A stretch of DNA of 54,409 nucleotides from Candidatus Aerophobota bacterium (lineage in GTDB: Bacteria; Aerophobota; Aerophobia; Aerophobales; JAGGVN01), in contig JAGGVN010000129.1 in the NCBI GenBank assembly GCA_021158005.1, forward strand, positions 1 through 54,409, given 5' to 3'. Shown here piece by piece: positions 51,054 through 51,161 of the stretch. The notes beneath the pieces were generated by a model that made no database searches, was not told the DNA's origin, and saw only the letters and a list, made by a program, of their open reading frames with translations. The stretch's first letter is position 1; the number at the start of each line of letters is the position of its first letter. Position numbers and translations under genes: made by a program.

Positions 51054-51093
51054 TGCACTATTTTAGTTCGTAGTTTTGCACTAATATTGAGCA
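51054..51093 (+). promoter_or_regulatory. putative enhancer (UAS) C: two 17-bp NtrC-like dyads
   Basis: TGCACTATTTTAGTTCG (51054-51070) and TGCACTAATATTGAGCA (51077-51093), 23 bp centre to centre. The first dyad matches cassette B at 16 of 17 positions. Confidence 0.65.
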
Positions 51094-51145
51094 GTCATCG
51101 ACTATTTTTTTATTTTATTTACTGTTTAAGAAGTCTTAAAGAATT

Positions 51146-51161
51146 TGGTAAAAAAATTGCT
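51146..51161 (+). promoter_or_regulatory. sigma-54 (-24/-12) promoter C
   Basis: TGGTAA-AAAAA-TTGCT with the same GG-to-GC spacing of 12 nt. About 60 nt upstream of ATG 51221, which has an AAGGAGG RBS. Confidence 0.72.

Follow-up and report, generated by a model that had tools for sequence, protein, structure and literature searches.

A putative enhancer and sigma-54 promoter upstream of an outer-membrane barrel operon in an uncultured Candidatus Aerophobetes bacterium, and its likely PrsR-like activator

We analysed a stretch of 54,409 nucleotides from a Candidatus Aerophobetes genome (hereafter, the window) and found that the genes for an 850-aa outer-membrane beta-barrel protein (OMP) and a DUF11/CLIPPER repeat protein are preceded by a cassette of two dyads and a -24/-12 element, here called cassette C. 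In our judgement cassette C is very probably a bacterial enhancer joined to a sigma-54 promoter, which would drive the OMP and DUF11/CLIPPER operon under a PrsR-like activator that would also drive two further sites, cassettes A and B. We favour this reading because the dyads, the box and their spacing are exact, are unique at A, B and C and are conserved in three relatives, and because the activator is intact and the only one of its kind, rpoN is present, and the plus strand at the OMP gene carries no sigma-70-like promoter. A preliminary description of this DNA had proposed that one activator co-regulates the OMP/DUF11 operon and a fibre operon; with one true activator, rpoN, three sites and a footprint in relatives, this is still the best reading in silico. 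The coordinates of all features are given in Table 1.

RESULTS

Two dyads and a -24/-12 box upstream of the OMP gene

Cassette C lies in a 613-bp divergent intergenic region between the protease and OMP genes. The preliminary description had reported that dyad 1 of C matches dyad 1 of B (42632-42648) at 16 of 17 positions and that a second dyad follows 23 bp on. We located both at exact coordinates, and the distance between the two dyads, start to start, corresponds to about two helical turns. Dyads of 17 bp placed two helical turns apart are the norm for the NtrC family. The -24/-12 element said to lie downstream of the dyads with the same spacing was likewise recovered: TTGGTAAAAAAATTGCT carries GG at 51147-48 and GC at 51159-60 with 10 nt between them, which is the canonical TGG-N8-TTGC spacing. 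This 17-mer is placed 51 nt past dyad 2 and 59 nt ahead of the OMP ATG (51221). Dyad-symmetric sites at about -110 and -87 fit the range of ~80-150 bp upstream for an activator-dependent sigma-54 promoter. One detail speaks against our reading, in that the -24 box of C is TGGTA and not the consensus TGGCA.

The plus strand ahead of the OMP gene (50541-51281) yielded no sigma-70-like promoter, and no IHF site was established in the 51-nt spacer. A covariance-model search of positions 49721-54409 (L003) for the c-di-GMP-II riboswitch (RF01786) gave no match at E <=1. On the minus strand, a sigma-70-like promoter at 51003-51031 (TTGACC, 17 nt, TATAGT) is directed at the protease gene and borders the enhancer on its left side, and activator binding at C could also influence this divergent protease promoter. 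A minus-strand -24/-12 match at 50570-50585 (TGGGGAAAAATTTGCT) lies inside the part of the protease gene that encodes the signal peptide, and was rejected as a chance match.

Table 1. Features of the window, in order of position
Feature	Position	Strand	Remarks
GAF histidine kinase (PrsK-like)	39140-40597	+	TIGR02916 222 bits, cutoff 300; only profile positions 413-679 matched
PrsR-like NtrC-family sigma-54 activator	40590-41939	+	TIGR02915 530.3 bits, cutoff 502.6; predicted to bind the dyads
Cassette A (dyads and -24/-12)	42054-42168	+	before lone receiver gene 42247-42627
Cassette B (dyads and -24/-12)	42632-42752	+	before fibre operon 42791-48488
Variable 8.4-kb segment	42667-51051		rest of cassette B, four fibre genes, S8 protease, protease promoter region
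S8 protease gene	48556-50607	-	convergent with fibre operon, divergent from OMP gene
Enhancer dyad 1, cassette C	51054-51070	+	TGCACTATTTTAGTTCG, TGCACTA-TTT-TAGTTCG; centre ~-110 from predicted start site
Enhancer dyad 2, cassette C	51077-51093	+	TGCACTAATATTGAGCA, TGCACTA-ATA-TTGAGCA; centre ~-87
AT-rich spacer between enhancer and promoter, 51 nt	51094-51144	+	presumed looping or bending segment
Sigma-54 -24/-12 promoter TTGGTAAAAAAATTGCT	51145-51161	+	predicted start site near 51172
Ribosome-binding site AGGAGG	51210-51215	+	5 nt before ATG; read directly from the sequence
850-aa outer-membrane beta-barrel protein (OMP)	51221-53773	+	first gene of operon; weak Porin_4 and SlpA_C matches
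DUF11/CLIPPER repeat protein, signal peptide	53800-54409	+	second gene of operon; PF01345 78 bits; runs off the window

The composite pattern is confined to cassettes A, B and C

The three cassettes share one layout, with dyads 22-23 bp apart, 51-65 nt from dyad 2 to the promoter 17-mer and 38-78 nt from the 17-mer to the start codon. Cassette B has the look of a hybrid, with a dyad 1 like that of C and a dyad 2 and promoter box identical to those of A. When the window was searched, the dyad-1 17-mer with up to 3 mismatches (shuffle mean 0.21) and the promoter 17-mer with up to 2 mismatches (shuffle mean 0.05) were each found at A, B and C only, and in neither search did any of 100 shuffles reach three matches. 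The search was extended to the whole assembly (1.77 Mb, 165 contigs, 92.5% complete, 63% A+T), where dyad 1 with at most one mismatch occurred at B and C only, and the three cassettes were again the sole sites of the promoter 17-mer when two mismatches were allowed. A weight-matrix search of the 1.77 Mb for dyad pairs 20-26 bp apart also returned only A, B and C, a result that is partly circular because the matrix was built in part from these sites. Single strong dyad-like matches at C5:4001, C112:583, C48:1694 and C48:6687 had no TGG-N8-TTGC box nearby and seemed, by eye, to lie in coding DNA; they were rejected.

Intergenic DNA rich in A+T might be thought to have produced the likeness of the three cassettes by chance. 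An A+T content of 63% in the genome would suit that view, and so would the count of single TGCACTA heptamers, which shows no enrichment in the window (4 found, 2.15 expected; 16 of 100 shuffles reach 4). However, the composite is unique genome-wide and kept in three relatives, which effectively refutes chance, and we assign it a negligible probability.

One PrsR-like activator and a short sigma-54 are encoded in the genome

The PrsR-like protein consists of a receiver domain, a Sigma54_activat domain (253 bits), an AAA-lid and an HTH_8 domain (62 bits, a Fis-type HTH). Its motifs are intact, namely D51 (LLDLHLPP; the presumed receiver aspartate), Walker A GESGTGK, GAFTGA at residue 222 and Walker B DEV, and its score against TIGR01818 (NtrC) is below the cutoff. 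No other true sigma-54 activator was identified in the assembly (92.5% complete): PF00158 gave it 255.8 bits versus 20-33 bits for generic AAA+ proteins of the assembly, and tblastn otherwise returned receiver-domain paralogs only. The Fis-type recognition helix, LLGIHRNTLRRK, is conserved among PrsR orthologs.

At its C-terminal end the GAF histidine kinase carries two MshEN-type motifs, KLIGEYLLEMGAIGPSELKKAVEIQ and RKIGEILIDLGYIREEQLSAALKRQ, in a tail that is conserved in prsK orthologs across the order. Both motifs fit the MshEN consensus for c-di-GMP binding, which suggests that the tail may serve as a c-di-GMP input.

The gene rpoN was identified on contig C71 (15768-16190, Sigma54_DBD 94-97 bits; RpoN box SRRTICKYR). 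The sigma-54 gene is short, with a product of 374 aa in which Pfam recognises the DNA-binding domain alone and not the N-terminal or core-binding domains, and this counts against our reading. In several families of the order (L052, L054 and L055), prsK-prsR come just after a sequence that resembles the 3′ end of rpoN, with an RpoN-box-like RRT..KYR in its translation; a TGGCATAAAA(G/T)TTGC box stands behind this sequence.

A further good sigma-54-type box, TGGCAAAAATTTTGCA, was noticed on contig C19 at 14600-14615, between a CheY-like receiver gene and flgH (PF02107, 171 bits)/flgI; it is not accompanied by TGCACTA-type dyads, and the gene behind it starts from 14647. This box could mark a fourth sigma-54 promoter whose activator is not in the assembly. 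A flagellar activator may be encoded in the unassembled 7.5% of the genome, and the sigma-54 regulon may extend beyond cassettes A, B and C.

These observations bear on an alternative in which the -24/-12 promoter is real, but some other protein binds the dyads or a second activator, encoded in the part of the genome that was not assembled, serves the promoter. With 92.5% completeness there is room for such a gene, and the flgH box without these dyads hints at another activator; the possibility of a second activator in the unassembled part is also a point against our own reading. However, all dyad-bearing sites lie within 10 kb of prsR, the related double dyad in other families occurs only near prsR orthologs, with 0 control matches (see below), and the recognition helix is conserved among those orthologs. 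We consider this alternative very unlikely, and continue with the PrsR-like protein as the probable dyad-binding activator.

Close relatives keep the dyads and the promoter box

Among GTDB representatives there is no same-family relative of this genome. A metagenome scan and contig look-ups identified three metagenomic contigs from three different samples, L056, L062 and L063, whose OMP orthologs share 82-83% protein identity with the OMP of the window. One of them, L062 (Ga0186713_165295), looks chimeric, and only its internally consistent receiver-cassette-gene stretch was used, alongside L056 and L063. Its positions 1455-3554 are 99.6% identical to 39842-41941 of the window, its positions 4-1466 are an inverted copy of 38564-40026, its far end is an 88-bp fragment of a window-type OMP allele, and its middle is 78-84% identical to the window.

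All three contigs carry the same double dyad upstream of the OMP gene, TGCACyATTTTrGTTCr, 6 nt and kGCACyAAAwTA, and the TGCACyAA core of dyad 2 is kept in these relatives. The promoter box reads TTGGTAAAAAAATTG(C/T); L056 has TTGT and not TTGC at -12, which is a further point against the sigma-54 reading. The spacer between dyads and box ranges from ~50 to ~110 nt and has diverged in both sequence and length. At the level of sequence, such conserved islands in a drifting intergenic region are a classic phylogenetic footprint.

The gene order is also informative. The OMP gene stands directly after the small receiver gene in all three contigs (3/3), and this receiver gene follows prsK-prsR in L056 and L062; the L063 contig ends within the receiver gene. 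The order in L056 and L062 is prsR, cassette, receiver, cassette, OMP, and a DUF11 gene comes next in L056 and L063. Between cassette A′ and the receiver gene, L056 additionally has several GC-rich hairpin repeats at 1960-2310 (GGTAGCGGCAGG-N-TTAnCCTGCGA-like), which have no counterpart in the window and resemble REP-type elements.

The fibre operon and the protease gene form a variable segment

The chaperone-usher-like fibre operon comprises four genes, including one for an usher-like 1000-aa protein. Direct enhancer repeats, at 42630-42666 and 51052-51088, flank the 8.4-kb segment that holds this operon and the protease gene. When L056, L062 and L063 were compared with the window by blastn, homology from the receiver gene stopped at 42665/42666, inside the cassette B enhancer, and homology into the OMP gene resumed at 51052 (L062; the left edge of the C enhancer), 51120 (L063) and 51206 (L056). 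The cassette B enhancer is homologous to the single enhancer of the relatives and continuous with the receiver gene. Either the segment was inserted here with duplication of the enhancer, or recombination between B and C removed it from the relatives. No ortholog of the usher-like protein was found in 40 relatives, which favours acquisition in this lineage; the composition profile of the segment showed no clear foreign-DNA signal and gave no pointer either way.

Given that the OMP gene directly follows the receiver gene in all three relatives, we read cassette C as the ancestral target site and the ancestral copy, and the fibre operon and protease as the variable part. The preliminary description had cast the OMP/DUF11 operon as a distal member of the regulon; the gene order of the relatives overturns this and makes it an ancestral neighbour of the receiver gene. 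It had also suggested checking whether the two modules co-occur phylogenetically. They do not, as judged from the lack of an usher-like ortholog in the 40 relatives and from the riboswitch at distant OMP orthologs (see below), so the OMP/fibre link is specific to this lineage. The protease gene had been called convergent, which holds relative to the fibre operon but not relative to the OMP gene, from which it is divergent.

Direct repeats around a variable segment, together with the hybrid look of cassette B, would also be compatible with C or B being a non-functional recombination scar, with one of the duplicated enhancers in use and the OMP operon transcribed from another promoter. However, C is the copy that is continuous with the OMP gene in the relatives, and in the footprint it is precisely the dyads and the -24/-12 box that are retained beside a drifting spacer. 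The lack of a sigma-70-like promoter on the plus strand upstream of the OMP gene also argues against a scar, as do the complete, correctly spaced promoter box and the ribosome-binding site that follow the dyads. We hold a scar to be unlikely, and favour cassette C as a functional enhancer and promoter of the OMP operon.

More distant relatives carry related enhancers or a riboswitch

PrsR orthologs with 58-65% identity in other families (G007, G014 and G020) adjoin related double dyads, TGCCyTAnTTTAGTGCA, N5-6 and GCAC..., which are followed by TGGCATGAAAGTTGCT. These elements precede prsR itself and genes for a GT2 glycosyltransferase and polysaccharide deacetylase, Wzz/GNVR, OEP and UDP-glucose dehydrogenase. 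A degenerate double-dyad pattern gave 9 matches in 5 of the 31 genomes of the order, 7 of which had served to derive the pattern; all lay near prsR orthologs, and the reversed control gave 0.

OMP orthologs at 57-65% identity have no such cassette, which weighs against our reading. They have a c-di-GMP-II riboswitch (RF01786) together with, by eye, a terminator-like hairpin and T-run. The riboswitch of L064 (2787-2874) scored 55.1 bits against a gathering score of 53.5, and a GAF-GGDEF gene lies just upstream of it. That of L023 (G007:C58, 1948-2031) scored 46.1 bits, the OMP ortholog of G007 having 57-59% identity; L057 has two copies (618-703 and 1279-1364) of ~41 bits each, and L059 has one (858-944) of 40.9 bits. 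The riboswitch family was detected in 15 of the 31 genomes of the order. In the genome under study the sole c-di-GMP-II candidate lies at C24:5841-5928 on the minus strand, with 38.6 bits (below the gathering score) and no obvious long ORF directly downstream.

We tentatively propose that, across a single bacterial order, the same OMP/adhesin operon could be wired to c-di-GMP in two interchangeable ways, in some lineages by the riboswitch as a direct control of the transcript and in the present one by the kinase, the PrsR-like activator and the sigma-54 enhancer, and that the enhancer could be a portable recruiting element which, by duplication at the two ends of the 8.4-kb segment, brought a horizontally acquired fibre operon into the regulon. 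This is possible, but we lean slightly against it.

The OMP, its homologs and the neighbouring protease

An AF2 model of the OMP (pLDDT 76) showed a large barrel. Foldseek with this model gave MtrB, SlpA and LptD as the best PDB folds, all with TM <=0.30 and thus generic large barrels, and a sequence search of the PDB gave no match. Because Foldseek returned generic barrels only, we withheld a family assignment. In other phyla, distant homologs of the OMP carry DUF11 or invasin-type Ig domains as fusions, which supports a functional pairing of the OMP with the DUF11 protein encoded downstream. These barrel homologs (P0018, P0033, P0037, P0038, P0042 and others) come from Campylobacterota, Omnitrophota and many cyanobacteria, and are 1,100-1,500 aa long. 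They carry DUF11 or invasin-D3/Big_1 fusions and are often annotated as 'TonB-dependent receptor'; the barrel-plus-adhesin fusions look like an undescribed family.

A paralog of the OMP, 31% identical, is encoded on the minus strand of contig C105 (766-6760, L026) in another operon, behind the gene for a 799-aa protein with a T9SS-like C-terminal domain, the same as in the S8 protease. This pairing of the paralog with the 799-aa protein also occurs in two other genomes of the order (G010:C166 and G006:C54). Neither a sigma-54 cassette nor a riboswitch was detected there.

The longest ATG/GTG/TTG reading frame of the S8 protease gene begins in the middle of what looks like the signal peptide (50580-50660, minus strand). 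An in-frame ATA, 33 nt before that start and behind an AGGAGA ribosome-binding site, would give IQKRLIKGIILITFFILMG...; the gene may use a non-canonical start codon, or its start may have been miscalled.

DISCUSSION

Proposed mechanism

In our proposal, c-di-GMP is probably sensed by the MshEN-type tail of the GAF kinase, and the kinase would phosphorylate the PrsR-like activator, presumably at D51. Activator dimers would then occupy both 17-bp dyads (TGCACTA-N3-TAGTNCA), which lie on one face of the helix with their centres at about -110 and -87 from the start site, and would assemble there into an active ATPase ring. The AT-rich 51-nt spacer would let the ring reach the sigma-54 holoenzyme, held as a closed complex on TTGG-N8-TTGC, and ATP hydrolysis acting through the GAFTGA loop would open the promoter, with transcription starting near 51172. 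The same activator would drive the lone receiver protein from cassette A, probably as feedback, and the chaperone-usher-like fibre operon from cassette B. Binding, phosphorylation, the c-di-GMP input and the start site are all features that we infer.

Significance

This analysis outlines a concrete candidate regulon for the uncultured Candidatus Aerophobetes, with one kinase/activator pair, one sigma factor and three promoters, for a feedback receiver, a fibre and an OMP barrel/adhesin pair. It also indicates that PrsR-family activators, named for PEP-CTERM/exosortase systems, operate in genomes without an exosortase; therefore, a gene annotated as 'PEP-CTERM-box response regulator' does not in itself point to the presence of that sorting system. 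The relatives provide what appears to be a natural example of regulatory replacement, with a riboswitch in some lineages and a two-component enhancer here, and the window what may be an example of a regulon growing by enhancer duplication. We regard the rewiring between riboswitch and enhancer, and the enhancer-flanked 8.4-kb segment, as the most interesting by-products of this work.

Comparison with known systems

In the PEP-CTERM box of Proteobacteria (Haft et al. 2006, PMC1569441), motif 1, a 17-mer that terminates in TTTACA and is in some cases repeated, is separated by 62.8 +/- 10.6 nt from motif 2, a sigma-54 (-24/-12) element of 17 nt, and the start codon follows after ~71 nt. PrsK, PrsR and PrsT match this pattern phylogenetically (PMC1569441). 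RpoN dependence of a PEP-CTERM gene has been shown by experiment, whereas PrsR binding has not (PMC9850573). The system described here is similar in its activator, which exceeds the TIGR02915 cutoff, in its layout, with 51-65 nt from dyad 2 to the promoter and 38-78 nt to the start codon, and in its surface or matrix gene targets, the cassettes of related genomes preceding exopolysaccharide genes. It differs in motif 1, which is here TGCACTA-N3-TAGTNCA, the dyads ending in GTTCG, GAGCA, AGTCA, GTTCA or GTTTA and not in TTTACA. Unlike PrsK, the kinase is a short protein that combines a GAF domain with an MshEN-type tail, and it reaches 222 bits against the TIGR02916 cutoff of 300. The host belongs to the Candidatus Aerophobetes lineage and is not a proteobacterium.

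The other components of a PEP-CTERM system were also searched for. The best match to the PrsT TPR lipoprotein (TIGR02917) reached 53 bits against a cutoff of 312; the exosortase EpsH/XrtA (PF09721) gave no match in the genome under study, and none of the 31 genomes of the order had a match above the cutoff; and no PEP-CTERM tail was seen at the C-terminus of any of the five complete target proteins that were read. A genome-wide TIGR02595 search gave no matches, and its control gave none either. The cassette would work like a PrsR enhancer, yet, since no exosortase, PrsT or PEP-CTERM protein was found, it is not part of a PEP-CTERM system.

Enteric NtrC (NR-I) enhancers, such as that of glnAp2, consist of two 17-bp dyads, TGCACnA-N3-TnGTGCA, ~80-140 bp upstream of a sigma-54 promoter and on the same helical face, and NtrC itself is a phosphorylated receiver-AAA+-Fis-HTH protein with a GAFTGA loop. 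The half-site of the dyads described here presumably resembles these enteric sites, and the enhancer mechanism itself is textbook. Unlike enteric NtrC, the present system concerns surface structures and not nitrogen, and its activator is orthologous to PrsR/AtoC-like proteins. The c-di-GMP-II riboswitch, which controls the orthologous OMP/adhesin operon in relatives at 57-65% identity, is an RNA-level attenuator, whereas cassette C would act as a DNA enhancer.
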